Shown: piece by piece, positions 1 through 24,675 of the stretch
Layout of the letters: every line of letters begins with the position of its first letter
Numbering within the stretch: the stretch's first letter is position 1
NCBI RefSeq assembly: GCF_001462395.1
Contig: NZ_LNTB01000001.1
Coordinates: 450,001 to 482,000, forward strand
Direction of reading: 5' to 3'
From: Pyrodictium occultum
Lineage (GTDB): Archaea > Thermoproteota > Thermoprotei_A > Sulfolobales > Pyrodictiaceae
DNA: 32,000 nucleotides
Translations under genes and position numbers: made by a program
Notes under the pieces: generated by a model
What the model was told of the DNA's origin: nothing
What the model saw: the letters and a program-made list of their open reading frames with translations, nothing else
Databases searched by the model: none

Positions 1-169
1 TAGGCTGAGAGCAGGCCTGCAGAGACGGAGAAAACCAGCATAGAACCCGCCTCAACGCGCCGACGTATGTCGAGCAGTACATCCCGGTGTACTATGGCTA
101 CTACAGCGCCCAGCACGCCCATGAGCCCCCGAGGGGCTCTAGAGCACCGAACCCTTCTCCCTTCTTAGC

Positions 170-430
170 CTAGCCGCCCCCAACCACCGGTTCTTCGACA
201 CTCTCTCCGACACCCGCCTTCCCGCGCTTTAACCCGTGCTTGGAGCCTAGACGCTTCTCTACCACGTTCATCTGGTGCTCTCCCTGCAGCATCCTGCCTA
301 CTAGGTATTGCGGAAGCTCGTGGCGTACGAAGGCGTCTATTATCTTTGATTCAGCTCTCCGGAGGAGCTCAGCCAGCGTTGACACCGAGAGCCCAAGGCT
401 CTCCGCGAGCTGCTTGAGGCTTATCCTACG
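170..430 (-). pseudogene. HTH_10 (Bat/DmsR-type) transcription regulator, C-terminal fragment carrying the helix-turn-helix
   Basis: The minus-strand frame reads RRISLKQLAESLGLSVSTLAELLRRAESKIIDAF..., a near-consensus second half of the HTH_10 motif. The track ORF 170..385 only begins at an internal GTG. This frame is 1 nt out of register with the upstream fragment 421..801. Confidence 0.6.
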
Positions 431-801
431 GGGAAGCTATAGTAGCCCATGAAGTAGGCGTATATTATCGCGAGCTCCTGCTTCTCCGTAAGCATATAGG
501 CGTACTCGTCTATGCTATGACTGTGGATTATCTTGCAGCCCCATCTACGTAGCTCCTCGAGAGCGCTGCTGCGGGCTATTATGAACTCATACAGGATGCC
601 TAGAGGCATGAGAACCACCGTCTTAGACATGGCCCCTATAGGGGCCGCTATTAGCGGGCACGCACTGCCCTCCGGCTCTGCCGCGCGTTTACTACAGTAG
701 CTCCTCTTGGAGACGAGTATGCGGAGAATCCTGTTAAACTTAAACTTATTAGAATAGATCCGTAAATCCAGTGCCTCCGTCAGAGCCTTCATCGAGTTCA
801 T
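421..801 (-). pseudogene. HTH_10 transcription regulator, N-terminal fragment
   Basis: It ends ...LTEKQELAIIYAYFMGYYSFP, then VG-stop. The pattern LTxxQxxxxxxAxxxGYYxxP(R) is the first half of the HTH_10 motif. Adding one base to the C4 run (plus-strand GGGG at 430-433) gives ...GYYSFPRRISLKQLAE... and fuses it to 170..430, for about 210 aa in total. The start is placed at ATG 801 (MNSMKAL); the track start at 894 is a longer alternative. Confidence 0.6.
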
Positions 802-862
802 GATGCCCGCCGAGCGAGGGGACGGAACTAATAGCCTTGAGCAATGGGCAGTCAATGTTACG

Positions 863-877
863 TATACAATATATAAC
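863..877 (-). promoter_or_regulatory. TATA-like box upstream of the HTH_10 gene
   Basis: The minus strand reads TTATATATTGTATACG, about 65-75 nt upstream of ATG 801, in an AT-rich patch of an otherwise GC-rich sequence. Confidence 0.3.
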
Positions 878-960
878 GAGCGGCTTGTTAGCATGCATCC
901 CTTAGCACCCCGGGAGCTCTAATACGGGCATTAATTCTGGGGGCGGAATACGTAAATAAA

Positions 961-1010
961 CAGAAATAAGCACAGAAATAAGCAGGGTATGAGGATGAGA
1001 GAGGATGAGA
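961..1010. repeat. Two perfect short tandem duplications (2 x 12 nt cagaaataagca at 961-984; 2 x 10 nt gaggatgaga at 991-1010)
   Basis: Read directly: cagaaataagca|cagaaataagca, then gggtat, then gaggatgaga|gaggatgaga. They lie in the ~230-nt AT-rich non-coding spacer between the protease 3' end and the HTH_10 gene. Confidence 0.9.
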
Positions 1011-1124
1011 AGGGAAACATACTACCAGCTCCACCCGCTTAGTCGCGTGTTATCGAGCATCGTAATTATAAAATATTACTGATGAGTGGCGTCGAGCTAT
1101 AGCGCTTGCCAGCGACACAGGCTA

Positions 1125-1391
1125 CTAGGACCGTCTAGCTAGGGGTAGGCGAGAAAGCACAACGCCCAGTGCTACGCCCAGAGCGCCTGATACGATCCAT
1201 CCTGGTGCACTGGCGGGGGCGTGAGAGTGCGTTAGGACAGTTGCCCCGTGCGGGTTCTGGCTCCTCTCCGGGTTCTCTACTGGCACCGGGCTACCGGTGG
1301 TAACGTAGGTGGCATAGCCGGTGGACTTGTTGCGTGTAGTTTGCGTTCGTGGAGGGCTGCTTGCCGCGTCGCGGGGGTTGAGGCAGATGTG
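1125..1391 (-). pseudogene. Metalloprotease C-terminal fragment: S/T/P-rich linker plus membrane anchor (third frame)
   Basis: A frame not in the ORF track (no start codon) is open for 88 codons. It reads ...NKSTGYATYVTTGSPVPVENPERSQNPHGATVLTHSHAPASAPGWIVSGALGVALGVVLSRLPLARRS-stop (TAG at 1125-1127). This is a linker, a hydrophobic helix and a basic tail, directly continuing the S/T/P-rich end of ORF 1277..1822 in the -1 register. Confidence 0.5.
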
Positions 1392-1822
1392 CTACTATTC
1401 TCGAAGACTTCTATATCTATGAATGGCCAGCTGTCCGCCCTGCTTGCAGCCGCTATGAGAGCCGGGCCTATGCTGGCTTTAAGCCTCTTCCTACACCCCG
1501 AGGGTGCTAGGGAGAGCATTGTTCTAATCAGGTCCAGCAGGCTTACGGGCTTACCGCCGCCCGCCAGCGAGCTGTTGAAGAGCTGGCGTAGGGCTCTCGT
1601 GTATAGGTCCGTGCCGCAGGCATGGACCCCAGCGTACCAGAGGGCGGCATTCATCCTCATCCAGGTGGCGTACGCGTCCCCGGCCTCTATGGAGCCACGC
1701 ACGTAGCTTACTGCCATGCTGTAAAGCCTGGGGTCCGCGTCGTGGAGGGCTTTCAGCGCCAGGAACTCGGTAGCCGCCTCCTCTAAGCTGAAGTCCCGCC
1801 GAGCAGCCCGCTGTTTAGCCAC
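1277..1822 (-). pseudogene. Metalloprotease middle fragment
   Basis: The frame reads (V)AKQRAARRDFSLEEAATEFLALKAL...; the SLEEAATEF segment resembles the WLxEGxAxY third-ligand segment of gluzincins. There is no plausible independent start or signal. It overlaps the HExxH fragment by 40 nt in the -1 register. Confidence 0.55.
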
Positions 1823-2610
1823 CCATGCACCGTCTCGTGGGCCGCTGTGTGCACGAGCCAGGGGAGATCCACCTGGAGTAAGCCCGTCTTAATGTAGACC
1901 ATTCCCCCAGTGCTATGGCCGCTCTTGGGGAGCTGCAGTGGCTGCCCCTCAGGGTCGACGAGCACCACTAGCACTGGGGAGCGGGGGCTAGGGCCCAGCC
2001 ACTGGGATACGAGGGAGCGGACGACGGCTACCACGTGTGCCGCATAGCTAGCTGTTTTACCGGGTAGCCTGCTAGAGTATATTATTGTCAGTCCCGTGCT
2101 GCTGTTATCCACCACGTGGTAGCTCGAGGCATCGGCCACCACTACGCTGTCGAAGACGTAGTACCTGGCCAGCATGCGCAGGGGCACACGGTAAGGGCCC
2201 CCGGGGGGCCCGTAGCCACGCCAGTCCATAGCGCTTCTAGCCAAGTAGCCTCTCGGAGCATTAACCGTCACAACCGCCGGTGCGCCGCCGCTAGCCCGGC
2301 TTATGGACTCCAGCCTGGCAGCGGCCTGGGGGCAAACCGTGTCGAGAATGTAGTAGAGCGGTGCTGCCACGAGGCTTCTGGAGATGTCGCGTGTCTCGAT
2401 GTAGTAGATGTTTGGTCTCAGCACGCCAGTGCAGCCGACATCCAGGCCGGGGCCCCGTAGCTCCACGTGCACCCTCCAGGAGGAGTCGTCTATGGGCTTG
2501 AGGAAGTCTATCCTTAGGCTGTAGCTTCCCTGGTGGGCCTGGACTGCGCTGAAAGCTAGCGCAGGCATTAGGAGCGCCAGGGCCGCGGCTGCGGCGCGGG
2601 CTTGCCTCAT
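1783..2610 (-). pseudogene. Secreted zinc metalloprotease (HExxH, M1-like signature), N-terminal fragment
   Basis: It has an N-terminal signal peptide, MRQARAAAAALALLMPALAFSAVQA. It ends ...LVHTAAHETVHGWLNSGLLGG TSA-stop. HETVHGWxN (HExxH at 1825-1839) matches the HExxHxW..N pattern of M1/M61-type peptidases. Confidence 0.65.
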
Positions 2611-2762
2611 CCTGGACTCCCTTCCCGAGGACGCCTAGGCGCGGGCTCCGTAGCCCTAGGGCTAGGGCTTGAGGCTCTCAAGGCGGGTGGAGGAGGGGTT
2701 GGAGAGGCCGGGTATGGAGAGGTAAAAAGCCTTGGCGCGGGTGACGGCTAGCGGGAGGGCTG

Positions 2763-3494
2763 CTAGCTCCTCCTGTACACGATGGCTATGCCTAGGGCTA
2801 TTACTGCCAGGGCTAGCGCTATTCCGCCTAGCGTGTAGGATGCTGTGGCTACGCTGTCAATCTTGCTGCTCAGCTTGTCTATCTTGCTGCTTATCTCCTC
2901 GGCTATGCTTAGAGCCTGGCCAGCCTTGCTGCTGGCCTCCTTGGCCTCGTTGCTAGCCTTCCCCGCCCTAGCGCTGGCCTCCTGGGTCTTGCTGCTTAGT
3001 GTCTGCAGCTGGCTGGTCACCCGCTTTATCTGCTCTACAACCTGCTCTATGTTCTTGGCCTGGGGGCTTATAGCTTCAAGCTGCTTACTCAGTTCCTCGA
3101 GCTGCTTCACTAGCTCGTTCACATTAGTCTTCAGAGTGCTTACATCACTCTTTAGCACATCCACCTCAGCGGCGGCGCCCTCAACGCTCTCTAGCCGGCT
3201 CTTTAGGGCTGGCACCTGCGCGTTGAGGGCAGCTATCTCCGCCTTTAAGGTCTCTATCTCACGCTCTATCTGCGCTATCTTCGCTGCCAGCTCGGGCGTA
3301 TACTTGCCGCCTGCAGCGGCCTTGAGGCTCTGCAGCTCGGTCTGCAGCATCTTTACCTTCAGGTTGAGGGCTATCCAGTTGGTCATCTTACCGAGGGCCT
3401 CCATCACTGTGTCGACTATGCCGAACCAGTGCGCGTAGTCGGGACCCATCATCATGGCACCGTTCCTCCAGCGGCGGCCCTGGTGGTGCCACAT
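2763..3494 (-). CDS. Coiled-coil protein with a C-terminal transmembrane anchor (SlaB/tetrabrachion-like stalk architecture)
   Basis: 243 aa. About 170 aa of heptad-like, Ala/Glu/Lys/Leu/Ser-rich sequence (LQTELQSLKAAA...IAQIEREIETLKAEIAALNAQVPALKSRLE...KIDKLSSKIDS) is followed by GGIALALAVIALGIAIVYRRS-stop. The ATG lies 8 nt after the cytochrome stop codon. There is no N-terminal signal peptide. Confidence 0.7.
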   Translation of the reverse strand: MWHHQGRRWRNGAMMMGPDYAHWFGIVDTVMEALGKMTNWIALNLKVKMLQTELQSLKAAAGGKYTPELAAKIAQIEREIETLKAEIAALNAQVPALKSRLESVEGAAAEVDVLKSDVSTLKTNVNELVKQLEELSKQLEAISPQAKNIEQVVEQIKRVTSQLQTLSSKTQEASARAGKASNEAKEASSKAGQALSIAEEISSKIDKLSSKIDSVATASYTLGGIALALAVIALGIAIVYRRS

Positions 3495-3502
3495 ATGTAG
3501 TA

Positions 3503-4378
3503 CTACATTATCTCCGGGAACTCGTCCAGCTTGTTGGTCGGATCTGCTATGCCCTCCTTCCAGGACAGCTGTAGCAGGCCGTATGCGAACTTAGCCACTA
3601 TGTCGTAGTCTATTATGTTCTGGTCGGCTGTGCGGAAGAAGTTGTCTGCCCACTGCGAGCTGTGGCAGAGCTTGCACACCTTCTTCATCTCTTCACGGTG
3701 CTTGGCCAGCTCGCCGCTATACTCTATCTTCAGCAGCCTCGGGAACTTAGTCTCGCCGGGGGCGGGGCCCTCCACTATCTTGAAGCCCATGAACACTGGG
3801 TACCGGTACTCCGGCGGGGCGTTGGGGTTCTTGTGGGCCTCTATGTCCTCGGCCTTGCCGGCGAGCTGGCTCCAGCCGTAGAAGAGCGCCAGCTGCACCT
3901 TGTCGGGTATTATGCCCTTGGGTATGCTGAAGAAGTGCATCTCGTCCCATACAAGCCTGTTTTCAAGGTCGTGCGTGCCCTTCACAACTATCCTGCCGTC
4001 AGGGGTTGCTATTGTACTTATATGGCAGGTAGCGCAGGTAGGCGCGTTGAAGTCGCTGCCCGCATGCCACGGCAGGGTCTCCCAGTTCCACTTCTCGCCG
4101 TAGGCGTGCTCTATGTTACCATGGGCGCTCTCCTCGTAGATCTCTATGTGCGGGTGGCCGTAGCCTAGGTGGCAGCGGCCACAGGTCCACGGTTCGCGAG
4201 CCTGCTTGAGGCTGAAGAGGTGCCTATCATGGCACGCGGTGCAGGTGCCTATGCTGCCGTCGGGGTCTACACGGGCTGCGCCATTGTTAGGCCAGCCCCA
4301 TAGGGCTACCCTGTTGACTGTGAGGCCGCGGAGCTGAACCGTCTCCTTCTTGTAGGGCACCACTATGGTGCCGGGCAC
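3503..4378 (-). pseudogene. Octahaem cytochrome c (HAO-superfamily-like), C-terminal fragment with haem motifs 5-8
   Basis: It contains CTACH, CGRCH, CATCH and CKLCH. The context (GTCTACHDRHxFS, WTCGRCHLG, CKLCHSS) is typical of hydroxylamine-oxidoreductase-type multihaem proteins. The apparent start is a GTG inside the preceding fragment's broken CXXCH. Confidence 0.8.
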
Positions 4379-5157
4379 TCGCCACAGGCGTGGTAGATGT
4401 AGCCGTTCCTAAAGTACGGGTGCTCCATTATGTTGCTTATAGACTTGCTCACCTTGCCATCCATTGTTGTGACAGTTATCTTTATGCCAAGCCTGCTGAG
4501 GACTGTGGTGTTCAGTACGCCGCTGGCAGGCCACAGCGGGCTTATCCAGTTCTTGAAGTCCATGTCGTAGGGGGTCACCATGCCGGTAGCCTGCTTAAGC
4601 ATCTTTACTATATCGTTCTCCCTGCCGGTTTCAAGGTACTCCATTACAGCCTTAGCTATGTCCTTGTAGAAGTCCCAGTCTACCTCGTCCTTGTCGCGCT
4701 GCTTGAGCAGGTAGGGCGGGAAGTACTTGAGGTACAGCTGCTTGGCCTTGACGTCGCCGAAGGGGTTTGCGCCCTGCTTCTTGGCCCAGGCTAGTATGCC
4801 CTTATACCAGGGTAGGAACGGTGAGTGCAGAGTGCCAGTGACGTGCCAGGTCCAGCTTATCTCGGCAGCCTCCTTGGGGTGGCACCGGCTACAGTCCTTC
4901 TTGGTCACTATTGTTACTATCCTGTAGCCGAAGTGGTTCTCTATCACGTCGGGCCTATCCTGCACCTTGAACATGCCGTGGCACTCATAGCAGCCTACAA
5001 CGTAAGGGTAGTTCTTGAACTTGGCAGCTATCTTGTCCGCCCACTCGGCGGCTCCAATGGCCTTGTAGAGGTCTGCCGCCTCCGCGGGGGTCGCCTGGGC
5101 GTGCTTGCTGTTAGCCCACTCGTAGACTATGCCGGGCGTGTACTGGACGTGACAAGC
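4363..5157 (-). pseudogene. Octahaem cytochrome c, middle fragment (haem motifs 2, 3 and the truncated motif 4)
   Basis: The frame is open from just after an in-frame TAA (5158-5160): ACHVQYTPGIVYEWANSKHA...GCYECHG MFKVQ...DCSRCHP...YHACGEC PAP-stop. The track ORF (4363..4974) starts only at the internal Met after CYECHG. Confidence 0.75.
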
Positions 5158-5336
5158 TTAGACAAGCCTTTGTCTGCGGGCTCACCTTGTCGCTCCGCAT
5201 TAGCTCCTGTACCTTCTTCACCAGCTGGTCGCCGAATACCACATTGTCGTCCTCGGCATGCGCCGCGGGCGCCAGGGCTGCCACTGCGAACAAGAGTATA
5301 GCTTAATGCGACCCCTGCTAGGAGGAGCCTCCTCAT
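5111..5336 (-). pseudogene. Octahaem cytochrome c, N-terminal fragments (signal peptide and first half of haem motif 1, in two frames)
   Basis: ATG 5336 is preceded by GGGAGGG and reads MRRLLLAGVAL.... The +1 register continues ..LLFAVAALAPAAHAEDDNVVFGDQLVKKVQELMRSDKVSPQTKACLS... Joined, they give a classical n-h-c signal peptide ending AHA. Confidence 0.6.
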
Positions 5337-5557
5337 AGCTTGGTGCCCTCCCTAACACAACCGTGGTAATAAGTTGAATATCCATAGTGTACAACTAGTT
5401 ATGTTTGGATCCCTAATCTTTCGGAGCCCACCGGGGCATGCCATAACACGCTACATCAATTATTTTAACCTATGTTGTTATTCCGGTGCTCCTCCAAGCC
5501 GCCGCTGCAGCGAATAATAGCCGTAATACCTGCCCGGAGAGCCGGCGGGGAGAATCC

Positions 5558-6343
5558 ATGGCCTTCGGGATCCAGGGCCTACGGGTTCTCGTCACCGCGT
5601 CCACACGGGGCATAGGCCATGGAGTAGCGGAGGTGCTTCTCGAAGAGGGCGCCAGGGTGGTGATCAACGGGCGTAACCGCGAGAGGATTGAGGAGGCGCT
5701 GGAGGGGCTCCGGGGCAGAGGCGAGGTCTACGGAGTGGCTGCTGATCTCACCAGGAGGGATGACGTCAAGAGGCTTGTAAACAACGCCGCCAAGCTTCTA
5801 GGAGGCCTCGACGCAGTGGTCTACGTCACGGGGCCTCCGAGGCCCGGTGTCTTCGAGGAGCTTGGGCTCGAGGACTGGGATTATGCCGCCAGGCTTCTGG
5901 TCATGAGCGCCGTCTGGGTTGCTTACTACGCGCTGCCATACCTCAGGGAGAGCAGTAGGCCGAGCCTAGTCTATGTTACCAGCGTGGCCACTAAGGAGCC
6001 TGTGGAGGGGCTTACGCTCTCAAACGCGCTCAGGATAGCCGTGCACGGGCTAGTCAAGACGCTCTCCAGGGAGCTCGGCCGGCACGGTATTAGGGTTAAC
6101 GCCGTGATGCCGGGCTACATTATGACCGATCGGGTCCGGCAGCTGGCTGAGAGGAGGGCCCGGCGGGAGGGGCGTAGCCCGGAGGAGGTGCTCCGTGACA
6201 TCGCCGCCTCCGTGCCCCTGGGGAGAATCGGGGAGCCTAGGGAGGTTGGCTACCTGGTGGCGTTTCTCCTGAGCCCCTACGCCGGCTACATAAACGGGGC
6301 CTCGATACCGGTCGATGGCGGGCTCCTCCACTCGGTCTTCTAG
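5558..6343 (+). CDS. Short-chain dehydrogenase/reductase (SDR) family protein
   Basis: MAFGIQGLRVLVTASTRGIGHGVAEVLLEEGARVVINGRN carries the TGxxxGxG-type Rossmann motif, and ...GIRVNAVMPGYIMTD is also typical. ATG 5558 is preceded by GGGGAG; the 5486 GTG extension in the track looks non-coding. Confidence 0.8.
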   Translation: MAFGIQGLRVLVTASTRGIGHGVAEVLLEEGARVVINGRNRERIEEALEGLRGRGEVYGVAADLTRRDDVKRLVNNAAKLLGGLDAVVYVTGPPRPGVFEELGLEDWDYAARLLVMSAVWVAYYALPYLRESSRPSLVYVTSVATKEPVEGLTLSNALRIAVHGLVKTLSRELGRHGIRVNAVMPGYIMTDRVRQLAERRARREGRSPEEVLRDIAASVPLGRIGEPREVGYLVAFLLSPYAGYINGASIPVDGGLLHSVF

Positions 6344-6379
6344 TAGATAGAACACTTAGAGCCCCTAATGCACCCCGCA

Positions 6380-6397
6380 CAGCCCTCCGCAGGGCTG
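6380..6397 (+). other. Perfect 7-bp hairpin (cagccct-ccgc-agggctg) abutting the start region of the next gene
   Basis: Read directly. The stems at 6380-6386 and 6391-6397 are exact reverse complements with a 4-nt loop, followed by ggggaATG (6403). Confidence 0.5.
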
Positions 6398-6402
6398 GGG
6401 GA

Positions 6403-7836
6403 ATGGCCGCGGGAAGGACTACCGGCGCCGGTGTGGTGCGTGTCAGGATACGCGGCATCTACGCTACAGCGCTGACTAGGCTGGCTCTGGACTACGGGTT
6501 CCAGGTTGTGCAGGCCTCAAGGGTTATCGCAGGCCGGTTCGGCATACCCCAGCTGACGCTCCCTGCCGACGTCACACTGAAGAACAGTGATAGCGACCCA
6601 TCAGAGCTCGTGGTTGTAGGCTATACTTGGGCTGTCGAAAAGGTTCTGGAGAAGCTTAGGGAGACCCTGCCCTATTCATTCTACTGGCGCAGCCGCCTAC
6701 CGCTCCACGCCACCGTCAAGGCCAGGGTGAGGGGCCGGGCCAGCGGCGAGGCGTGCATAGCCGAGGTGGAGGGGGTTGAAGCCGAGCTTGCGGACGAAGA
6801 GGGCTGCGAGCCTGGGAGGGAGGTTGTAGCCTCCGTTGTGAGGCCTGGAGTGAAGCCGTGGGAGAGGCCACGCCTCGCCCTGGGGGCGCGCGTCATAGGG
6901 GATTATGCGATACTCTTCGAGTCCCCCCGGCCTAGGGTGACGGTAAGCGAGCATGTAAGGATGCAGGAGAAGAGGGCCGAGTTAGCGGCTCTGGCCACGG
7001 AGTACACTAGCCGGGGGCTGAGCGTCCACTGGAGGAGCAGCAGCCAGCACGCCGACGCCGAGACCCTGCGGAGACACCTCGAAGAGCTGCACCAAGCGCT
7101 CCTCGAGGCCAGGGAGAGGGCTGAGAGGGGCGGCCCCGGCGTCTACACGCCGGGCGAGACGGTGGCCGTCGTGAGGCTGAGCAGCCTGGACAAGGCTACG
7201 CTGGACACGGTGAGAGACAAGGTGACCCCAACCATAGAGCTGCATCACAGCGTGAAGAGCCTCGCACCGAGCATCTCCACTGTTGTGGACTACGCGGAGA
7301 AGCTCAAGGCGCGGGGCGTGGACCCGGCGCTGCTCCGGGAGGCCCTGCTCGACACTATGGGGGAAATGCTTTCCTCAAGGCGCAGCGTCAGGATTATCCA
7401 TGTTAAGCTTGACGGTAGGGTGGTGGAGCTCGGCCGGGGCGAGGTTAGAAGTATCTACCGGGAGAACGGCCGCCTCATAGTCGTCATTGAGAGGCGGGTA
7501 CGGAGCCGCGGCGTCTACGACGGGCTTGGAGCCGAGAAGGAGCCCGGAGACAGAATAGTAACGGAGATTGACACAGGCTCCTGGCTTGTGAAGCACACCT
7601 ACTACTCTAGGAACGGCTGGGTAAAGGGCATATACGTCAACGTGAACACGCCCCCAGAGGTGGCGGAAGATGCCTTGGTATATCTAGACCTAGAAGTAGA
7701 CGTTGTGAAGAAGCCGGGGGAGAAGCCACGCCTCATAGACGAGGATGAGCTGAAGAAGGCACTTGAATCGGGGATAGTTACGGAGAAGCTCTACCGGGAG
7801 GCGCTTGAGAAGGCTAGAAAGGCGCTGGGAGACTAA
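6403..7836 (+). CDS. FAU-1-like RNA-binding protein / probable ribonuclease (RNase E/G-like N-terminus plus DUF402-like C-terminus)
   Basis: 477 aa. The N-terminus VRVRIRGIYATALTRLALDYGFQVVQAS matches the characteristic start of archaeal FAU-1. The C-terminal GIYVNVNTPPE...LDLEVDV is DUF402-like. The true start may be GTG at 6433/6436. Confidence 0.6.
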   Translation: MAAGRTTGAGVVRVRIRGIYATALTRLALDYGFQVVQASRVIAGRFGIPQLTLPADVTLKNSDSDPSELVVVGYTWAVEKVLEKLRETLPYSFYWRSRLPLHATVKARVRGRASGEACIAEVEGVEAELADEEGCEPGREVVASVVRPGVKPWERPRLALGARVIGDYAILFESPRPRVTVSEHVRMQEKRAELAALATEYTSRGLSVHWRSSSQHADAETLRRHLEELHQALLEARERAERGGPGVYTPGETVAVVRLSSLDKATLDTVRDKVTPTIELHHSVKSLAPSISTVVDYAEKLKARGVDPALLREALLDTMGEMLSSRRSVRIIHVKLDGRVVELGRGEVRSIYRENGRLIVVIERRVRSRGVYDGLGAEKEPGDRIVTEIDTGSWLVKHTYYSRNGWVKGIYVNVNTPPEVAEDALVYLDLEVDVVKKPGEKPRLIDEDELKKALESGIVTEKLYREALEKARKALGD

Positions 7837-7839
7837 CCG

Positions 7840-7847
7840 TTATAAAG
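7840..7847 (+). promoter_or_regulatory. TATA box (TTATAAAG) for the tRNA-Leu gene
   Basis: An AT-rich octamer lies about 45 nt upstream of the mature tRNA 5' end, compatible with an archaeal TATA at about -26 plus a short leader. Confidence 0.4.
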
Positions 7848-7888
7848 CCCCATAATGCCGGGAGACTTTTGCATGGAGCCTGCTGGGC

Positions 7889-7976
7889 GCGGGGGTGCCC
7901 GAGCCAGGTCAAAGGGGGCGGGCTCAGGACCCGCTGGCGTAGGCCTGCGTGGGTTCAAATCCCACCCCCCGCACCA
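7889..7976 (+). tRNA. tRNA-Leu (anticodon CAG), genomically encoded CCA
   Basis: Folded by hand. The acceptor GCGGGGG (7889-7895) pairs with CCCCCGC (7966-7972), with discriminator A and CCA. The anticodon stem gcggg/cccgc has the loop cTCAGga (CAG at 7925-7927, U33 and G37 present). There is a long variable arm, and the T arm is gtggg-ttcaaat-cccac. Confidence 0.9.
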
Positions 7977-14767: not shown

Positions 14768-15258
14768 CCCCCACTGAGACCGTGCTCGTCCTCCTGCCAG
14801 CTCTCGCGGCCAACGGCTCCCCCGTCCTCCTAGGCCACAGGGGCACCCCGATCGACGGGGGCAGGAGGTTCATCGACGGAAGGCCGTTGCTGGGCCCCGG
14901 GAAGACCTGGGAGGGGCTGGCGCTAGGCACCCTGTATGGCTCGATAGTGGCGCTCCTCCTAGCCTCGCTCACCTGCCGCCCCCTCATACTCTGGGGCGGC
15001 ATCGCCGCCTCTCTGGGAGCCTTGATCGGGGACATGCTCGCCGCGTTCATAAAGAGGAGGCTCGGCCTTGAGCGTGGAGCGCCCGCCCCGGTGCTGGACC
15101 AGCTGGACTTCTACTCCGGGGCCCTGCTGCTCCTCTATACTCTCGGCCTCGTGGTGGATCCTCTAACCGCGGTGCTCCTGGCGCCGGCGGTGTTCATGCT
15201 GCACCGCGCCACCAACATTGCGGCCAATAAGCTGAGGCTGAAGCAGGTACCCTGGTAG
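14752..15258 (+). CDS. carS: CDP-archaeol synthase (CDP-2,3-bis-O-geranylgeranyl-sn-glycerol synthase)
   Basis: LLPALAANGSPVLLG...PIDGGRRFIDGRPLLGPGKTWEGL plus multiple hydrophobic helices match the CarS (DUF46) signature. Its GTG start overlaps the preceding gene by 16 nt. Confidence 0.75.
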   Translation: MARLLTPTETVLVLLPALAANGSPVLLGHRGTPIDGGRRFIDGRPLLGPGKTWEGLALGTLYGSIVALLLASLTCRPLILWGGIAASLGALIGDMLAAFIKRRLGLERGAPAPVLDQLDFYSGALLLLYTLGLVVDPLTAVLLAPAVFMLHRATNIAANKLRLKQVPW

Positions 15259-15305
15259 AAGCCCCAAGGCCGCCGCAGAGGGGCCCGCCACGTGGGTCCC
15301 CCATT

Positions 15306-15524
15306 TCACCTGCTACGCTCCTCCCCCGCCTCCCCGCTGCCGGAGCCCCCAGGTTTTATCAGCCCGGCCATCAGCTTCATGCGGTACCTGTAGGCAACGT
15401 ACCTATCCTCCGGCGAGAAGCGGGGCGGATGGGGAACCGCTAGAGGGCCACCGCAGAGGGGGCACCGGTCGCGCCGAAGCGTGTACCTGCCGCAGACCAT
15501 GCACCTTCTCATGAGCCACCTCAT
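15306..15524 (-). CDS. nop10: H/ACA RNP protein Nop10
   Basis: MRWLMRRCMVCGRYTLRRDRCPLCGGPLAVPHPPRFSPEDRYVAYRYRMK is the Nop10 zinc ribbon plus the PxRFSPED motif. ATG 15524 is preceded by GAGGAGGGTGG. Confidence 0.85.
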   Translation of the reverse strand: MRWLMRRCMVCGRYTLRRDRCPLCGGPLAVPHPPRFSPEDRYVAYRYRMKLMAGLIKPGGSGSGEAGEERSR

Positions 15525-15561
15525 TGTCGCCACCCTCCTCGGGCCTCCCGGGGCTTCAGCG

Positions 15562-16359
15562 CTACCGCCTCTCCCTAGTGAAGTCGAAGCTCACGCCCAA
15601 CTTCTCGGCCTCGGCCCTGCCGGTCTCTAGGCCCTTCTCTAGAGCCTTCTCGAGGGTCTTGTAGTCGTAGGCTTCTAGCTCAAGCCTGTAGCGGGGCGTG
15701 CCTATAGTGTAGAGCCTGACGCTTATATCACCAGAGGACTTCATTATAGCGTTCTTCACCGCGAGTAGCACCTTCTTTATGCGCTCCACACCGTCGCCCG
15801 CTAGGCTCCTAGCCGTTATGACCCCGCCTATCCTTACCCTCTTCACCTCTACATGGCGCCTTATCTCCTCGAGCAGCGGCTGTATCCACTCCTCCGGGAC
15901 GCCGGCCTTGCGGAGAGCCTCCTCGCCGCGTATAGCTGCCTCCTCGAAGGCTGCCATCAGCTCCCCATAGGCCTCCTCGAGGCGCCACCCTACCTCCTCA
16001 TAAGCCTGGTCCAGGCTCTTCCCCAGCTTCTGCGCCACTATCTCCAGTATCTTCTCCGCCTTCTGGGCCCTCTTCCACTCCATCATCTTGCGGCGGCGCT
16101 CATTATCGTTGACACGCTTGAGCGACACGTCCACCTGGCGGTTCCGCCTATTGACCCTGATAACCTTGACTACTATCTTCTGGCCAGGCTTCACCACGTC
16201 GTGTATGCTGCGCACCCAGCGGGAGGCGACCTCACTCCAGGGTAGGTACGCCTCCAGGCCGCCATACTCGTCCAGGTTGAGGTAGGCGCCGTAATCGTAC
16301 ACCTCGCGCACCGTCGCCACCACTAGCTCTCCCACGTCGGGCAACTCCTTCTTCCTCAT
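15562..16359 (-). CDS. eif2a: Translation initiation factor aIF2 alpha subunit
   Basis: MRKKELPDVGELVVATVREVYDYGAYLNLDEYGGLEAYLPWSEVASRWVRSI... has the S1 domain of aIF2alpha and is 266 aa. The 55-aa N-terminal extension in the track ORF (to 16524) spans a spacer with terminator and TATA-like signals and is not credited. Confidence 0.85.
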   Translation of the reverse strand: MRKKELPDVGELVVATVREVYDYGAYLNLDEYGGLEAYLPWSEVASRWVRSIHDVVKPGQKIVVKVIRVNRRNRQVDVSLKRVNDNERRRKMMEWKRAQKAEKILEIVAQKLGKSLDQAYEEVGWRLEEAYGELMAAFEEAAIRGEEALRKAGVPEEWIQPLLEEIRRHVEVKRVRIGGVITARSLAGDGVERIKKVLLAVKNAIMKSSGDISVRLYTIGTPRYRLELEAYDYKTLEKALEKGLETGRAEAEKLGVSFDFTRERR

Positions 16360-16423
16360 AGGCACTGCCCTACACCCCTCTAGGGCTACACCTGCCCCGG
16401 GAACCCGAGGGATGCGTGGCCTA

Positions 16424-16432
16424 CTAATATAA
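16424..16432 (-). promoter_or_regulatory. TATA-like box (minus strand TTATATTAG) upstream of aIF2alpha
   Basis: It is the only AT-rich element in the 198-nt spacer between S27e and aIF2alpha, about 65-70 nt upstream of ATG 16359. Confidence 0.3.
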
Positions 16433-16546
16433 CGTAGCAGCTCTAGAGCCACCCATCTTGTGCAGAGGCGCGGATCAGCAGCGAGAAGGAGACCGGGAAC
16501 ACTATGCTGCAGCCGGGAGGGCAAAGGGGGGCCGAGAGCACGGGTG

Positions 16547-16551
16547 AAAAA
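16547..16551 (-). terminator. T5 tract directly after the S27e stop codon
   Basis: The minus strand reads TAG CCCAGC TTTTT CACC. Oligo-T tracts act as archaeal termination signals. Confidence 0.3.
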
Positions 16552-16557
16552 GCTGGG

Positions 16558-16758
16558 CTAGCCCAGGACGCGGACCACCTGGCCGAGTATCTTGGCCTTG
16601 CCGCCGGTGGGTTCCACTAGCTGGGCTCCACAGACCAGGCAGCGGACAGGAAAGGTGGCGTGGCTGAACACCACTTGCTCGTTGCCGCAGACGGGGCAGC
16701 GGACGAGTAGGAACTTGCTCCTCGGCTGGGGGACCAGTACCTTCAGCCGGCTCACCAT
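16558..16758 (-). CDS. rps27e: 30S ribosomal protein S27e
   Basis: 66 aa. The C4 zinc ribbon [40 protein letters not shown] is typical of S27e. Confidence 0.9.
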
Positions 16759-16761
16759 AGG

Positions 16762-17046
16762 CTACCTCACCTCCACGAGCTCGACCTTCTTCAGCCGGAT
16801 CCCCCTACGGTGCAGTATATAGCCACACTTCTGGCACTTGAGCTTGAGTACAACCTTCTTGGTTACCTTGGCGAAGCGCTTCTGCTCCGGCTTCCTCTTG
16901 CTACCATAGCCCTCCTGCTTCCTACGATACCTTCGCTCACCCTCAGCTAGGCTACGCCTCTTACCATGCTTGTATATCGTCACCGAGTGGGGTGTATGCG
17001 TCTTACAGCGCGGGCAGTAGGTGACTATAACCTTGGGCACCTTCAT
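16762..17046 (-). CDS. rpl44e: 50S ribosomal protein L44e
   Basis: 94 aa. [22 protein letters not shown]...[17 protein letters not shown]...LKCQKCGY is typical of L44e. It lies 3 nt upstream of S27e. Confidence 0.9.
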
Positions 17047-17103
17047 GGCGCTGCACCGCTACCCTACCGAACCCCGTATACCGGGCCCCAGGGGGTTCCC
17101 AGA

Positions 17104-17116
17104 CTTAAATTAAATA
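17104..17116 (-). promoter_or_regulatory. TATA-like box (minus strand TATTTAATTTAAG) upstream of the L44e-S27e unit
   Basis: An AT-rich 13-mer lies about 60-70 nt upstream of ATG 17046 in the 102-nt spacer after the Gins15-like gene. Confidence 0.35.
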
Positions 17117-17148
17117 CTCTATAGATGGGCCCCTTAGGGCTGCCGCCC

Positions 17149-17607
17149 TCACCGCGCCTGGCTGAAGGCCAGGCCGGTCTCCACGGGCTCGGCGAGCCCC
17201 GCTGCTATCAGCTTAACCGCCCTAGAGGGCTCCATGCACGTGTAGGCGCCAGGCTTACCAAGACCGCCCTTAACGCCCAGGGGCTGGCGGAGCACCACCG
17301 GCATACACTGCCTGCCGTAAACCAGCTCGCCGGCAAGAAGCCTCGCATATGTCTCCGCCTCATCGACGCCCGCTCCTGCAGCCTCCACCAGCACCTCTCT
17401 AGCAAGCTCCTTTACCTCCCCTACCATGTCGAAGTAGCGGACAAGTACACGCTTATGCTCAAGCGCATGCCGATCCAGGAGGCTACGGGCAAGCATGCCA
17501 TGGAACCGGAGGCCGGCCTCTAATAGCTCCCCAAGCTTGCCAGAGTCGAGAACCCTCCTCAAAGCATCCAGTAACAGGGAGAGACCATACTCCCCCTCAA
17601 CAGACAA
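17149..17607 (-). CDS. Probable GINS subunit (Gins15/Gins51-like)
   Basis: 152 aa, helical N-part. The C-terminal VVLRQPLGVKGGLGKPGAYTCMEPSRAVKLIAAGLAEPVE resembles the Gins51 B-domain. Its position immediately downstream of priS mirrors the Sulfolobus PCNA-priS-gins15 arrangement. The assignment rests mainly on synteny. Confidence 0.4.
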   Translation of the reverse strand: MSVEGEYGLSLLLDALRRVLDSGKLGELLEAGLRFHGMLARSLLDRHALEHKRVLVRYFDMVGEVKELAREVLVEAAGAGVDEAETYARLLAGELVYGRQCMPVVLRQPLGVKGGLGKPGAYTCMEPSRAVKLIAAGLAEPVETGLAFSQAR

Positions 17608-17635
17608 TACTACCCACCTCTGGGCTGCCGGGGGC

Positions 17636-18790
17636 TTAGGCCACTACAGCTACCCCCTTAGCCAGCAGGTAGACAGCCACGGGAGCCGGCAGCCTAGGCT
17701 TATCTCCCCTCCGCAGCCGCAGCCGGTTACCCAGCACCGTCACAGTGGCAGGTATATCCGCCACTATCTCGATCCTCAGCGTATCATAGCTTGTGAAGGG
17801 CGACAGGCTCTCCGACAGCGTGAAGCCGTAGAGGGCGTCCAGGCTCAGAGGCACCACTGGGAGCCCGGTCTTCCCATTGATGCTCCAGGGGGCACGGATT
17901 AGCCTACGCGTATCCACAGTCACCTGCTCGTCTACCTCCACGCCCAGCAGCTCACGGGCCCGGGCTTCAAGCTCGCCGAAGAGCTTCTGGTACTCCTCGT
18001 AGCTCATCTGGACACGGCCCGTAAGGCGGCGCGCCAGATCCCGGCGGCCGGCGGCCTCGGCTAGCCTGTACATCACCCTAGCTAGCCTGCCCCTTGCCCC
18101 GGCGAGGTCTATGCTCGGGGGTATGGGGGAGGGTCTCCCTCTGCGTAGGCTGAGGCTGCGCCAGGGCTCGAGCACTTCCTCGCGAAGCCCCACTGCCTTG
18201 ACGTAGTTGACCAGCTCGCGGCGTATATCCTGCCCGGCCCGGGCCAGCTCGTCAGAGTCCCGGAGGTAGACCGTCAGGTGGAAGCCACGGTGCCCCGAGA
18301 ACTCTAGCGCCACCTGCTTCTCCTCAACGCCCAGCTCATCGACCAGTATGTCGTAGAGGAGCACACTCCTCAGCGCGGCGGGCTTGATGCACTTCTCGTC
18401 TATGAAGGAGGTCTTCTCCCCCAGGGGGGTCTCGACCTCCACAGTCATACCGCTGCACTCGGGCAGATGGTCGGCATCTATATCGAATACAAGGTCGGCG
18501 GAGCGCCATCCTTTAGCATCCATATCGTCCAGCCCCGGCTGGTCGTAGCGGGCGGAGGAGTAGTAGAAGTGGCGGGGCGCTCTCTCGACTAGGAACTGCT
18601 TGACTTGCGAGGCGCTTGTAAAGGAGAGGTGGCGTATATAGCTCTTGCCGGTCCAGGTCTGTGCGGCAAACTCTCTGAGAGCAAAGTCGCTGGGAAGGCT
18701 AGGATCCCGCTTCTCATAGTACTCGCGGGTGAGCCTCTCTAACAGCCTCCTAGTCCTAGCGGCCTTGGCCCGCAGGCCCTCCTCCGGCAT
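17636..18790 (-). CDS. priS: DNA primase small (catalytic) subunit PriS
   Basis: 384 aa. It has the catalytic DLVFDIDADH motif, then ...FSGHRGFHL..., the archaeo-eukaryotic primase signature. Confidence 0.85.
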   Translation of the reverse strand: MPEEGLRAKAARTRRLLERLTREYYEKRDPSLPSDFALREFAAQTWTGKSYIRHLSFTSASQVKQFLVERAPRHFYYSSARYDQPGLDDMDAKGWRSADLVFDIDADHLPECSGMTVEVETPLGEKTSFIDEKCIKPAALRSVLLYDILVDELGVEEKQVALEFSGHRGFHLTVYLRDSDELARAGQDIRRELVNYVKAVGLREEVLEPWRSLSLRRGRPSPIPPSIDLAGARGRLARVMYRLAEAAGRRDLARRLTGRVQMSYEEYQKLFGELEARARELLGVEVDEQVTVDTRRLIRAPWSINGKTGLPVVPLSLDALYGFTLSESLSPFTSYDTLRIEIVADIPATVTVLGNRLRLRRGDKPRLPAPVAVYLLAKGVAVVA

Positions 18791-18793
18791 CGG

Positions 18794-19546
18794 TTATTCT
18801 ACCCTCGGGGCTATTAGGAAGCTGAACTTAGCGCCCTGGGGGAGCTCGTGCTCCACCAGAGCCGGCATGTCGGTGCTGAAGTGGATTGTAACCATGTCGG
18901 CCACTCTGGAGGCGCTTGATAGGTCGCTGAAGTACTCGAGCGTGTAGCTTGCCTGCTGGGAGCCGTCCACCTCGAGGTCTACAAGGCTTCCGCTCTCACG
19001 CGTGTATATTATCTCGGCTTCGCCGAGCTCGCTTGAGGACGATACCTTGAACTCGTCGCCCTCCGCTACGAATCTTATCACGTCACCTATGAGCTCCACG
19101 TCCTTTATAGTATCACGGTACACGTCGCTCATAACCTTGACGTGGGCCTTGAACTCTAGCTGGGGCTCGGGAAGCTGCTCGGCAGTTATGTCGAGCAGGG
19201 GGAGGGTAAATGTGCGCACACCCTTTCCTATGAAGCTGAAGCTCACCGAGTTCTCGTCAGCATTTATCTCTAGCCGGTCCTCCTTCCCCGCTCGGCGTAA
19301 GACTTTAGCGACATCGTCGAGGTTGAGGCCGAGTTCCCTACGCTCCTCTAGATCAAACTCCTCAAAAGAGTCCCTGGGAAACCGCATGTCTAGCATAATT
19401 ACGTGCGAGGGATCCATTGCCCTGAAGAGGAGCCCCTCCTCCGGGTCTGCGACGAACACGCCCTCCTCTATAACCTTCGATATCGCCGATACGAGGTAAC
19501 GCCAGACACGGGCATCGAAGAACACAATTTTCAAGACCGGTGTCAC
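18794..19546 (-). CDS. pcn: DNA polymerase sliding clamp (PCNA)
   Basis: About 250 aa. LKIVFFDARVWRYLVSAISKVIEEGVFVADPEEGLLFRAMDPSHVIMLDMRFP is PCNA-like. The stop is 3 nt before the priS ATG. A TTG at 19534 preceded by GAGGTGA (19543-19549) is an equally good start. Confidence 0.85.
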   Translation of the reverse strand: MTPVLKIVFFDARVWRYLVSAISKVIEEGVFVADPEEGLLFRAMDPSHVIMLDMRFPRDSFEEFDLEERRELGLNLDDVAKVLRRAGKEDRLEINADENSVSFSFIGKGVRTFTLPLLDITAEQLPEPQLEFKAHVKVMSDVYRDTIKDVELIGDVIRFVAEGDEFKVSSSSELGEAEIIYTRESGSLVDLEVDGSQQASYTLEYFSDLSSASRVADMVTIHFSTDMPALVEHELPQGAKFSFLIAPRVE

Positions 19547-19629
19547 CTCGTCGCTGCCCTGGACCCGGGGGGTTCCAGCAGTTCCTATCCCAGGATGTAG
19601 CGTACGCTGGGGGCTTGACCGGGGTAAAA

Positions 19630-19860
19630 TTAGGATGGGGCCTTTTCCCGGCCCTGGGCTTCACGGCACATAGCCAGCAGCTGCTGGGCTGCACTCAGCC
19701 CCGATTGCACTAGGTGAAGGGCTCTCTCCATATGGGGCCTCGACGATATGTGCTGAGGAGTCCTGCTGTATGCCTCAAAAACATCCTCGTAGAGCTTCCC
19801 GAACAGCCTGGCAAAATACTCCAAGTAGCTATAGTCGATCACGCACGAGCCGCTAGTCAT
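19630..19860 (-). CDS. Small hypothetical protein (76 aa)
   Basis: Its ATG overlaps the TFS stop as ATGACTAG (a coupling-type overlap), and its codon usage resembles its neighbours. It fills most of the 306-nt gap between tfs and pcn. No recognisable motif. Confidence 0.35.
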   Translation of the reverse strand: MTSGSCVIDYSYLEYFARLFGKLYEDVFEAYSRTPQHISSRPHMERALHLVQSGLSAAQQLLAMCREAQGREKAPS

Positions 19861-20197
19861 ACTCTCTCCACACATACCCGCAGCTCACACACTTGAAGAA
19901 CCTTGTCGGGGGCTCGTCGGCGCGGCGGGTCTGCACAACCCAGTAGTAGGCCTCATGGTAGCCGCAGCGTGGACATGTAACCCTCGTCTTAGGCAGCGAC
20001 TCTAGGTTCTGCTGGCTGCTGACAACAACTATCCTCTCCTTCTCACTGTGTCTTATCTGCTGCCGGAGTACCGAGAGGGCCGGGCTATTGTTACCATCGA
20101 CCTCCTCCTGGTAGCCACAGCTGGGGCACACCCAGACACGCTTGCCATCAACGGTACGTAGGACCATTAGGCTACCACAGCGAGGACAGAACTTCAT
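19853..20197 (-). CDS. tfs: Transcription factor S (TFS / RpoM-like)
   Basis: MKFCPRCGSLMV...VCPSCGY is the N-terminal zinc ribbon. CPRCGYHEAYYWVVQTRRADEPPTRFFKCVSCGYVW is the C-terminal TFIIS-type ribbon with the acidic loop. ATG 20197 is preceded by GGGGTG. Confidence 0.85.
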   Translation of the reverse strand: MKFCPRCGSLMVLRTVDGKRVWVCPSCGYQEEVDGNNSPALSVLRQQIRHSEKERIVVVSSQQNLESLPKTRVTCPRCGYHEAYYWVVQTRRADEPPTRFFKCVSCGYVWREYD

Positions 20198-20310
20198 GGC
20201 ACCAGGCACCCCCTATGATCCACTGCGCCGCGCCGCCCTTCCGCCCTATTGATACGCTTCGGGAGCCAGCCCACAGAGCCAGCCACCTGGCCTCTCTTAC
20301 ACTTTTCCAC

Positions 20311-20664
20311 CTACGCGCGGCGCTGCCAGCCGCCCGCGTCCTCTCCACGACCCTGGAGCCATCGACGCAGGGGGTCTTCAGCGCAGAGACCCCTTAAGAG
20401 CGCCTTGATGCAGGCATGGCAGCTTGGCGTGTAGGACTCTAGGCTCAGAGGCTCTAGGCCCAGCCGCGCAGCGGCCCCCGGAGGCCATGCAGCCCTAAGC
20501 TCTTCGAAGAAGCTGCTGGATCTAACTGTCTCGACCAGTTCCTCGAGGGAGCCGCCTATGAAGAGGGCCTCGACCCTACCCTGCCCCCGCAGAACCGCCG
20601 CTGCCGCCGCGTCTCCACACTGTTGGATGTATAGGAGGCGGGCTTCACGCTTCACACTTCGCAT
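20311..20664 (-). CDS. Hypothetical protein (117 aa)
   Basis: Its ATG overlaps the rpoL 3' end by 20 nt. No confident motif. The AAAAVLRGQGRVEALFIGGSLEELVE segment only loosely recalls eRF1/Pelota domain-3 type sequences. Confidence 0.3.
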   Translation of the reverse strand: MRSVKREARLLYIQQCGDAAAAAVLRGQGRVEALFIGGSLEELVETVRSSSFFEELRAAWPPGAAARLGLEPLSLESYTPSCHACIKALLRGLCAEDPLRRWLQGRGEDAGGWQRRA

Positions 20665-20950
20665 TAGACTTTAGCGCCTCCTCAAAGGCCCGGCGGAACT
20701 CTCTAGCATCTCTGATTATGTCGCTCAAAACCTCCTCTACCACGTCCAGGGGATCCCTGCTGCCGTCAGTAGAGAGGACTATGACCGGATTGCCTATCAG
20801 CGGGTGGGGTATCATGTAGGACGAGTACACCACGCCCGGCTTCCTTATGGCGTACTTGGCGATCAGGTTTGCCATGGTATGGTCCTCGCCCACAAGCTCC
20901 AGCTCCACGCTATTACCCTCGCGTTTCAGCAGCTTCACCTTCTCGGCCAT
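20645..20950 (-). CDS. rpoL: DNA-directed RNA polymerase subunit L (Rpo11)
   Basis: 101 aa. LELVGEDHTMANLIAKYAIRKPGVVYSSYMIPHPLIGNPVIVLSTDG is the RpoL/Rpb11 signature. Confidence 0.85.
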   Translation of the reverse strand: MAEKVKLLKREGNSVELELVGEDHTMANLIAKYAIRKPGVVYSSYMIPHPLIGNPVIVLSTDGSRDPLDVVEEVLSDIIRDAREFRRAFEEALKSNAKCEA

Positions 20951-20973
20951 GGCCTCCCACAGCCCCCGCCGCC

Positions 20974-21615: not shown

Positions 21616-21626
21616 CCTCAGGGCCG

Positions 21627-22884: not shown

Positions 22885-22885
22885 G

Positions 22886-23899: not shown

Positions 23900-24076
23900 G
23901 TAGCCGTCTATGACCGTGCAGCAGCCCCTACACTCCCAGGCCAAGACAGCCCATGCACCCAGTGGCCCGGACCCGGGAGCACCCCGATAGCACTGCCCGC
24001 GCCTGAGGGCCCCGAATGTGGCCCGGGGGGTGAAGGGGCCGGCTAGCTGGAGAGAGGAGGTGTGGGGAGGAAGACG

Positions 24077-24619: not shown

Positions 24620-24675
24620 GACTGGGCCCCGAGGGAGAGACCCGGAGGTGGCTGTTTATGAAGCCTTCTCCGCCG

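Follow-up and report, generated by a model that had tools for sequence, protein, structure and literature searches.

A probable octahaem cytochrome c pseudogene with five disabling lesions in Pyrodictium occultum PL19

Within a stretch of 32,000 nucleotides (nt) of the genome of the archaeon Pyrodictium occultum PL19 (contig NZ_LNTB01000001.1, positions 450,001 to 482,000), referred to here as the window, the minus strand from 5336 to 2763 carries pieces of coding sequence with haem-binding CXXCH motifs which lie in different reading frames. Are these the remains of a single gene, separately expressed proteins or the product of a faulty assembly, and what would the intact gene have specified? 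An earlier note, made from the sequence without database searches, had read them as an octahaem cytochrome c gene of the hydroxylamine oxidoreductase (HAO) superfamily, broken by three single-base changes. The follow-up analysis described here indicates that 2763-5336 is probably a true pseudogene in strain PL19. Its ancestor encoded an octahaem cytochrome c which was tethered to the membrane and belonged to the archaeal IhOCC/HAO clade.

Six-frame translation reproduced the four successive registers which that note had described on the minus strand from the ATG at 5336, as well as its count of six intact CXXCH motifs with two more gained by single-base repair, making eight (Table 1). Its three repairs agree base for base with the intact and near-identical genes P0001 and P0123. 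Removing one A at 5303-5304 joins MRRLLLAGVAL to AILLFAVAALAPAAHA, a hydrophobic core with an AHA site; removing one T at 5154-5155 yields KACLSCHVQY; and adding an A between 4374 and 4373 yields ACGECHGTIVVPYKK. The proposed product of about 610 amino acids (aa) did not stand, a nonsense mutation having been mistaken for the natural stop. The alignment to PDB entry 4QO5 runs past the supposed stop into the next open reading frame (ORF), and the gene therefore extends beyond 3503. In this ORF of 243 aa the last oligomerisation helix is followed by a coiled coil of about 185 aa and by the transmembrane anchor GGIALALAVIALGIAIVYRRS; the coiled-coil part matches Alanine_zipper (PF11839) at 27 bits against a cut-off of 23.1. 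The gene span of 2574 nt equals 2571 nt plus the net +3 from four indels, giving an ancestral product of 856 aa: behind the signal peptide came an eight-haem domain of HAO/IhOCC type, then a coiled-coil stalk of about 185 aa and finally a C-terminal transmembrane anchor. In GenBank the gene is represented by CF15_02485 (203 aa) and CF15_02480 (291 aa), as found by exact-sequence cluster look-up, and the 291-aa fragment protein occurred in one contig only of the protein collection.

The repaired protein matches Pfam family PF13447 (Multi-haem_cyto) at 65.9 bits (E=4.6e-18; gathering cut-off 21.9) and the protein of 4QO5 with E=5e-73 as a single sequence and 2.8e-107 as a family profile. HMMER searches against HAO structures gave E-values of about 1e-15 with the single sequence and 2e-28 with the profile, and 21 database proteins matched the repaired protein at E=0. 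The match lies far above chance level. The view that the product is secreted and is an octahaem cytochrome c from the HAO superfamily thus holds, with one shift of emphasis: its nearest characterised relatives are the reductive archaeal IhOCC (4QO5) and a second octahaem cytochrome of Ignicoccus, rather than the oxidative HAO.

Intact orthologues were recovered from the Logan assembly SRR5453782 (P0001, 842 aa, 98% identity), from the Logan assembly DRR667394 (P0123, 856 aa, about 98% identical and in the 90%-identity cluster of P0001), and from P. delaneyi (P0002, 852 aa, 73%), Hyperthermus butylicus (P0004, 835 aa, 72%), Pyrolobus fumarii (P0014, 837 aa, 66%), Pyrofollis japonicus (P0021, 868 aa, 64%) and Ignicoccus hospitalis (P0034, 638 aa, 55% over 93% of the query). 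The protein search also found them in many metagenome bins of the Pyrodictiaceae and Desulfurococcales. The gene is one uninterrupted ORF in over 25 clusters of intact orthologues (835-895 aa), and no split orthologue was present among those found by the protein search and alignments, which bears out the reading of the fragments as one gene. Measured against these orthologues, the window copy has four frameshifts and one nonsense codon. An alignment of 18 sequences (A1) shows no variation in any of the eight CXXCH motifs; a second one, of 90 sequences (A2), shows none in haems 2-8 and very little in haem 1. The protein of 4QO5, IhOCC or Igni_0955 (P0093, 1239 bits), is 32% identical over 48% of the query. 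Within I. hospitalis P0034 is therefore the closer of the two proteins, and the window gene is the orthologue of this other Ignicoccus octahaem protein rather than of IhOCC. P0034 is probably Igni_1359, by elimination from the inventory in PMC4429474.

The lesions were read from the DNA alignment of the window with the assemblies SRR5453782 (contig L001) and DRR667394 (L002). They number five and not three, the TGG>TAG change and the TG insertion having been missed before. Lesion 1 separates the MRR start from the hydrophobic core of the signal peptide. The independent assembly SRR5453782 shares its extra A, which DRR667394 lacks; the state in the latter is taken as ancestral because N-termini in the family read M[KR]R.LLA... 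Lesions 2 and 3 destroy haem motifs 1 and 4, as the earlier note had recognised. The residues affected are C58, C61 and H62 of haem 1, which are invariant in A1 and at least 90% conserved in A2, and C317, C320 and H321 of haem 4, invariant in the 90 sequences of A2. Haem 4, struck by lesion 3, is where HAO and IhOCC have their catalytic haem. Lesion 4 replaces Trp611, which is nearly invariant in A2 and through which the 4QO5 alignment passes, and lesion 5, the fourth frameshift, lies ten bases downstream of the resulting stop codon. The PL19 gene is unable to make the ancestral protein.

Table 1. Positions in the window of the pseudogene, its lesions and motifs, together with neighbouring genes and their state in P. 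occultum (gene states from exact-sequence cluster look-ups of the neighbouring proteins)
Feature	Position	Strand	Description
Octahaem cytochrome c, probable pseudogene	2763..5336	minus	Repaired translation colinear with intact P0123 (856 aa) and P0001 (842 aa), 98-99% identity
Lesion 1, one extra A	5303..5304	minus	GCATTAAGC against intact GCATT-AGC; inside signal peptide
Lesion 2, one extra T	5154..5155	minus	AGCTTGTCAC against intact AGC-TGTCAC; destroys haem-1 CLSCH; window-specific
Lesion 3, one missing A	4373..4374	minus	GAGTGCC-CGGCACC against intact GAGTGCCACGGCACC; destroys haem-4 CGECH; window-specific
Lesion 4, nonsense TGG>TAG	3503..3505	minus	At Trp611 of a conserved helix; window-specific substitution at 3504
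Lesion 5, TG insertion	3492..3493	minus	ACATATGTGGCAC against intact ACATA--TGGCAC; window-specific
CYECH	4992-4978	minus	Intact motif
CSRCH	4893-4879	minus	Intact motif
CTACH	4243-4229	minus	Intact motif
CGRCH	4183-4169	minus	Intact motif
CATCH	4036-4022	minus	Intact motif
CKLCH	3676-3662	minus	Intact motif
3' part of the gene, separate 243-aa ORF	2763..3494	minus	Colinear with P0123 residues 615-856
Partner gene, broken	1125..2610	minus	Two 1-nt deletions, G4>G3 at ~1798 and G3>G2 at ~1366; intact form 495 aa; CF15_02470, 275-aa fragment
HTH_10 regulator remnant	170..898	minus	167-nt deletion at ~763, 6-nt tandem insertion at ~748, C5>C4 at ~434; intact form 296 aa; CF15_02460, 123-aa fragment
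Thioredoxin/CcdA			Intact form 519 aa with CSACH (L002:8730-10289); split into CF15_02440 (337 aa) and CF15_02445 (187 aa), left of the window
CcmB-like			Intact form 221 aa; full length in P. occultum (223 aa)
CcmF			Intact form 1001 aa; full length in P. occultum
CcmC			Intact form 343 aa; full length in P. occultum
SDR gene	5558-6343	plus	261 aa, full length; internal control in the diverged block
DUF402/FAU-1 gene	6403-7836	plus	477 aa, full length; internal control in the diverged block
tRNA-Leu(CAG)	7889..7976	plus	ARAGORN; boundary between the diverged block (1-7613) and the near-identical housekeeping region (7948-32000)

Could the fragments nevertheless be expressed, through programmed frameshifting and stop read-through or as separate subunits of a functional cytochrome? 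Each fragment ORF is 200-290 aa in length and two are annotated as proteins in GenBank. Restoring the full product would, however, need four shifts of differing sign (+1, +1, -1, +2) in addition to suppression of a stop codon, at sites which are unconserved in a family where every orthologue is a single uninterrupted ORF. Two of the shifts fall inside CXXCH motifs invariant in A1, leaving fragments without haem sites 1 and 4; only the first fragment has a start codon beside a signal peptide, which is split in its turn. Expression of the pieces is accordingly regarded as extremely improbable.

We regard the damage as probably genuine and not introduced by assembly, because the substitutions behave like evolution, with purified flanks and a neutral cytochrome gene, and because the indels are confined to one block. 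Alignment of window 7948-32000 with DRR667394 covered 24,053 nt with 0 gaps and 21 mismatches, and that of window 14792-28656 with SRR5453782 covered 13,865 nt with 0 gaps and 3 mismatches. Window 1-7907 holds 14 window-specific indel events and 60 window-specific substitutions; the probability that all 14 indels would fall inside this 7.9-kb block by chance is 3e-9. The coding sequences of the SDR and DUF402 genes within the block contain none of the indels, where 3.9 were expected (P=0.02). In the cytochrome gene, nonsynonymous and synonymous substitutions number 11 and 3 (11N:3S; pN/pS ~1.0), equal to the neutral expectation. The flanking genes (DUF402, 2:5; partner, 6:8; HTH_10, 7:8) together give 15N:21S, a departure from neutrality with p=2e-5, and cytochrome and flanks differ by Fisher's test (p=0.028). 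The term "freshly" inactivated used earlier sits poorly with these neutral-looking substitutions, and with the three further genes of the cluster which are broken.

The genome of PL19 was sequenced on the MiSeq platform (22.5 M pairs, ~3800x) and assembled with SPAdes into 14 contigs, which were manually extended and super-assembled into 2 (PMC4767911). Generally poor quality of this assembly was considered as a cause and rejected, the adjacent 24 kb being without indels against two assemblies. A more local alternative is that the gene is intact in living PL19 and that the lesions are draft errors introduced when contigs were merged by hand and extended by read mapping, or that they belong to a minor variant subpopulation. 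Two assemblies, each about 99% identical to the window, do show the undamaged sequence at four of the five lesions, and both break at the bounding tRNA-Leu, implying a junction which is hard to assemble. Errors would not, on the other hand, produce synonymous-biased flanks beside a neutral-looking cytochrome gene, nor spare the coding sequences of SDR and DUF402. The block also contains a nonsense substitution, a deletion of 167 nt and tandem duplications 2, 6 and 10 nt in length, none of them a typical Illumina error. The duplications and the large deletion are slippage-type mutations, and the deletion and the 6- and 10-nt duplications would not be expected as errors from high-depth Illumina/SPAdes data. 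Lesion 1, moreover, is found independently in SRR5453782. We consider local draft error quite unlikely.

Several points must still be set against a genuine pseudogene. The lesions are known here from the deposited sequence, and we infer from it that they are present in the living strain. The manual joining of contigs (PMC4767911) leaves room for a locally poor consensus, and six of the 14 window-specific indels are 1-nt contractions of G/C runs, an error-prone context. Should SRR5453782 or DRR667394 be the PL19 read set, the block in GenBank would be suspect. The counts behind pN/pS are also small, with 14 changes in the cytochrome gene.

The same comparison raises the question of how the damaged copy came to be in PL19. 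Divergence from the sister strains is about 0.02-0.09% to the right of the tRNA-Leu gene and about 0.8-1% to its left, and both Logan assemblies break their contigs at this gene. The left block is itself a mosaic: 5025-6802 is free of window-specific substitutions, while changes specific to DRR667394 are confined to 4091-7305 with one exception at 1282. Synonymous divergence (pS) rises leftwards from 0.006 in the cytochrome gene to 0.021 in the partner and 0.039 in HTH_10. The mosaic divergence suggests recombination between strains, and the jump at the tRNA, the mosaic and the leftward climb would all suit an allele imported from a more distant Pyrodictium lineage and defective on arrival, which would say nothing of selection in PL19. 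On both sides the order of genes, and upstream the housekeeping genes, agree with those of P. delaneyi, which makes the locus ancestral and no island, and an element integrated at the tRNA was rejected on the same grounds. Lesion 1, in addition, lies in the non-diverged segment 5025-6802 and is common to the sister strain, so that decay began in the clonal frame. A defective import is possible but on the whole doubtful; it would in any case refine the explanation preferred here, the gene being a pseudogene under both.

Lesion 1, shared as it is with the sister strain, was probably the first event and is probably the oldest and an inherited lesion. Lesions 2-5 would have accumulated later under relaxed selection, with the partner, HTH_10 and thioredoxin/CcdA genes decaying alongside. 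In a metagenome scan the 31-mer for lesion 3 had no match, and the pattern for both states of lesions 4 and 5 was found only in L089, a 77%-identical relative with the intact motif. A contig of ERR15087784 (L088), a further data set from this species, has a different 1-nt deletion in the cytochrome gene at about 2645, from GTTGTGAAG to GTTG-GAAG, which truncates the product to 460 aa. The contigs of this assembly are short and noisy, with four gaps in 2.7 kb; the deletion may be an assembly error and was left out of the evidence.

The fold was examined on the intact orthologue P0123 (98% identical) instead of the broken window sequence. An AlphaFold2 (AF2) model built from 90 aligned sequences had a pLDDT of 85.4 and a pTM of 0.82, with residues 30-700 mostly above 90, and included helices at 631-825 and 837-854. 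Foldseek placed the model nearest to 4QO5 in the PDB (E=1.5e-26, TM-score 0.73), with HAO 1FGJ (E=1.3e-9, TM-score 0.56) and the reductive HAO-like Kustc0457 (1.6e-9) following; the range for HAO 1FGJ, Kustc0457, anammox HAO and HDH was 1e-9 to 1e-5. The model thus predicts an HAO-type fold, including the long C-terminal oligomerisation helices. Foldseek matches of the same model to the ONR structures 3TTB and 3F29 were not significant (E=0.56-1.3, TM-score below 0.3). Membership of the ONR/NrfA group was rejected on this result and on the motifs, all eight of which are CXXCH with no CXXCK; after repair haem 4 has CGECH, a CXXCH motif with a proximal histidine. The oxidative P460 enzymes HAO and HDH are defined by a tyrosine cross-linked to the catalytic haem of a neighbouring subunit. 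The HMMER alignments to HAO end before the C-terminal region in which this tyrosine would fall, and a search of the C-terminal segment alone against the PDB gave chance matches only, with no HAO among them. The tyrosine of the GPDY sequence (Y633) is phenylalanine in P. delaneyi and H. butylicus.

The stalk and anchor correspond to P0123 residues ~650-856 (window 2763-3390, minus strand), the end of the protein after the coiled coil being a hydrophobic helix followed by an RR(S/G) tail. The stalk is shorter in some Desulfurococcales bins, and the Ignicoccus orthologue and IhOCC have neither stalk nor anchor. HAO-family enzymes oligomerise through their C-terminal helices (PMC9250108). If fully helical, a three-stranded stalk would hold the haem domain some 25 nm above the membrane. 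Pyrodictium cells have a wide quasi-periplasmic space, with which this stalk length invites comparison.

Among proteins of solved structure IhOCC is the best match by both sequence and fold, with the same order of eight haems and a His-ligated CXXCH haem 4. It is, however, a paralogue of about 32% identity and has no stalk or anchor at its C-terminus. Haem motifs 3 and 4 are separated by 168 residues in the window protein (Cys148 to Cys317) but by only about 28 in IhOCC, and the 4QO5 alignments break there; in the AF2 model this insertion relative to IhOCC, at residues ~173-316, is well predicted. IhOCC, the archaeal nitrite/hydroxylamine reductase, is described as an octahaem nitrite reductase without the P460 cross-link which clusters with HAO and HDH in 'clade 1' (PMC9250108). 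HAO itself (1FGJ/4FAS) and the anammox HAO and HDH belong to the same superfamily and share the fold, with seven of eight haem motifs colinear at about 14-15% identity.

The second octahaem protein of I. hospitalis, P0034, resembles the window protein more closely. Its eight CXXCH motifs are colinear, its identity is 55% over 93% of the haem domain, and it shares both the region inserted between haems 3 and 4 and the conserved helices, GPDYAHW among them. Unlike the window protein it ends soon after the haem domain, without the stalk of about 185 aa or the transmembrane anchor; the window copy, for its part, is broken. This Ignicoccus protein was purified by Nass et al. in 2014, as cited in PMC4429474, and is a real haem protein, located at membranes and weakly reduced by the native hydrogenase (PMC4429474). 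The proteins of P. delaneyi, H. butylicus and P. fumarii (66-73% identity) have the length, architecture, stalk and anchor of the repaired protein, and differ from it in that their genes are intact while the window copy bears five lesions. The octahaem cytochrome of the Pyrodictiaceae is therefore a distinct and conserved sub-family of the IhOCC/HAO clade, marked by the coiled-coil stalk and membrane anchor.

P0002 of P. delaneyi is probably Pyrde_0496, judging from gene order and from the CXXCH motif of thioredoxin/CcdA, and the window gene is thus probably orthologous to Pyrde_0496. The 519-aa thioredoxin/CcdA protein with its CSACH motif fits the 'monoheme' Pyrde_0492, which is located four genes from the octahaem Pyrde_0496, an arrangement that suits the P. 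occultum cluster (PMC8105010). Pyrde_0496 has been detected in haem-stained bands of P. delaneyi grown on nitrate and on ferrihydrite, and its gene lies farther from those of a tetrahaem protein and sulfur-reductase-like proteins than from that of Pyrde_0492 (PMC8105010). Multihaem cytochromes c, which the earlier note had thought unusual for Crenarchaeota, are documented in this branch and are thus to be expected: they are reported from Ignicoccus, Pyrolobus, Hyperthermus, P. abyssi, P. brockii and P. delaneyi (PMC4429474, PMC8105010). The gene comes from a family known from these archaea before and represents neither a new type of enzyme nor a new metabolism.

By analogy with these relatives, the intact protein was most likely an extracytoplasmic, membrane-tethered reductase of the IhOCC type. 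It would be exported by a Sec-type signal peptide and loaded with its eight haems by the products of the adjacent system-I maturation genes (CcmB-like, thioredoxin/CcdA fusion, CcmF and CcmC), and would fold into an HAO-like haem domain, likely trimeric if HAO and IhOCC are a guide. The coiled-coil stalk of about 185 residues and the single transmembrane helix would hold it outside the cytoplasmic membrane. Electrons would be received from a hydrogenase/quinol chain and passed to a substrate such as nitrite or hydroxylamine at haem 4, the putative catalytic site by comparison with IhOCC. A reductive role is the more likely because the nearest solved relative, IhOCC, is without P460 (PMC9250108). 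What speaks against this assignment is that the model enzyme is 32% identical and that the orthologues are known by sequence, not by substrate.

The cytochrome gene belongs to a cluster which in relatives is ordered DUF402, SDR, cytochrome, a partner of about 500 aa, HTH_10, CcmB-like, thioredoxin/CcdA, CcmF and CcmC. A search for cytochrome c maturation genes, suggested in the earlier note, found them directly adjacent, as CF15_02430 to CF15_02450 in P. occultum. In relatives the partner, 495 aa long, combines a signal peptide and a C-terminal transmembrane anchor with a HETVH (HExxH) motif and a Ser/Thr-rich linker; intact copies are at L002:5299-6786 and L086:12777-14333. It had no Pfam match above threshold and no PDB match, and from its motif and anchor it may be a membrane-anchored zinc protease-like protein. 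The partner always adjoins the cytochrome gene in P. delaneyi and Hyperthermus. An intact copy of HTH_10 matches PF04967 with E=1.8e-19.

Taken together with the states listed in Table 1, these results favour, with modest confidence, a view of PL19 as a natural multi-gene knock-out of one cytochrome c module, comprising the octahaem cytochrome, its HExxH partner, HTH_10 and thioredoxin/CcdA. In strains which are 99.9% identical elsewhere the module is intact or carries only the first lesion. If the knock-out is genuine, the module is dispensable for H2/S0 chemolithoautotrophy at 105°C, which suggests that it is not needed for hydrogen/sulfur respiration in P. occultum. These strains would then form near-isogenic natural pairs in which to look for the substrate of the archaeal octahaem enzymes tethered by a stalk, and comparison of PL19 with its near-identical, intact-gene relatives could offer a cheap route to the function of the enzyme. 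For the annotation of the type strain, CF15_02480, CF15_02485 and the 243-aa ORF should be treated as pieces of one dead gene of 856 codons, and the fragments of the three neighbouring genes likewise as pieces of dead genes. The value of the locus lies in this correction and in the possible natural knock-out, and not in a new enzyme: it is a strain-specific pseudogene of a documented family.

H. butylicus shares only the partner of about 500 aa next to the cytochrome gene, its other neighbours being different. Behind the cytochrome and partner genes of Hyperthermus (L087:14330-17400) come those for a 233-aa tetrahaem-like cytochrome, for a ferredoxin-type 4Fe-4S subunit and for a membrane subunit of NrfD type. 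This arrangement suggests itself as a candidate module for quinol-linked electron input to the octahaem enzyme. A molybdopterin oxidoreductase is encoded upstream of the Hyperthermus cytochrome and partner genes.

Two further differences were noted outside the coding sequences of the window. A 10-nt tandem duplication of TCTCATCCTC and a T3>T4 change (at ~1010 and ~1073), both window-specific, lie in the intergenic sequence that separates partner and HTH_10 and that putatively holds the HTH_10 promoter. The poly-C tract at about 6402, between the SDR and DUF402 genes, has five C residues in the window, six in SRR5453782 and 11 in DRR667394.

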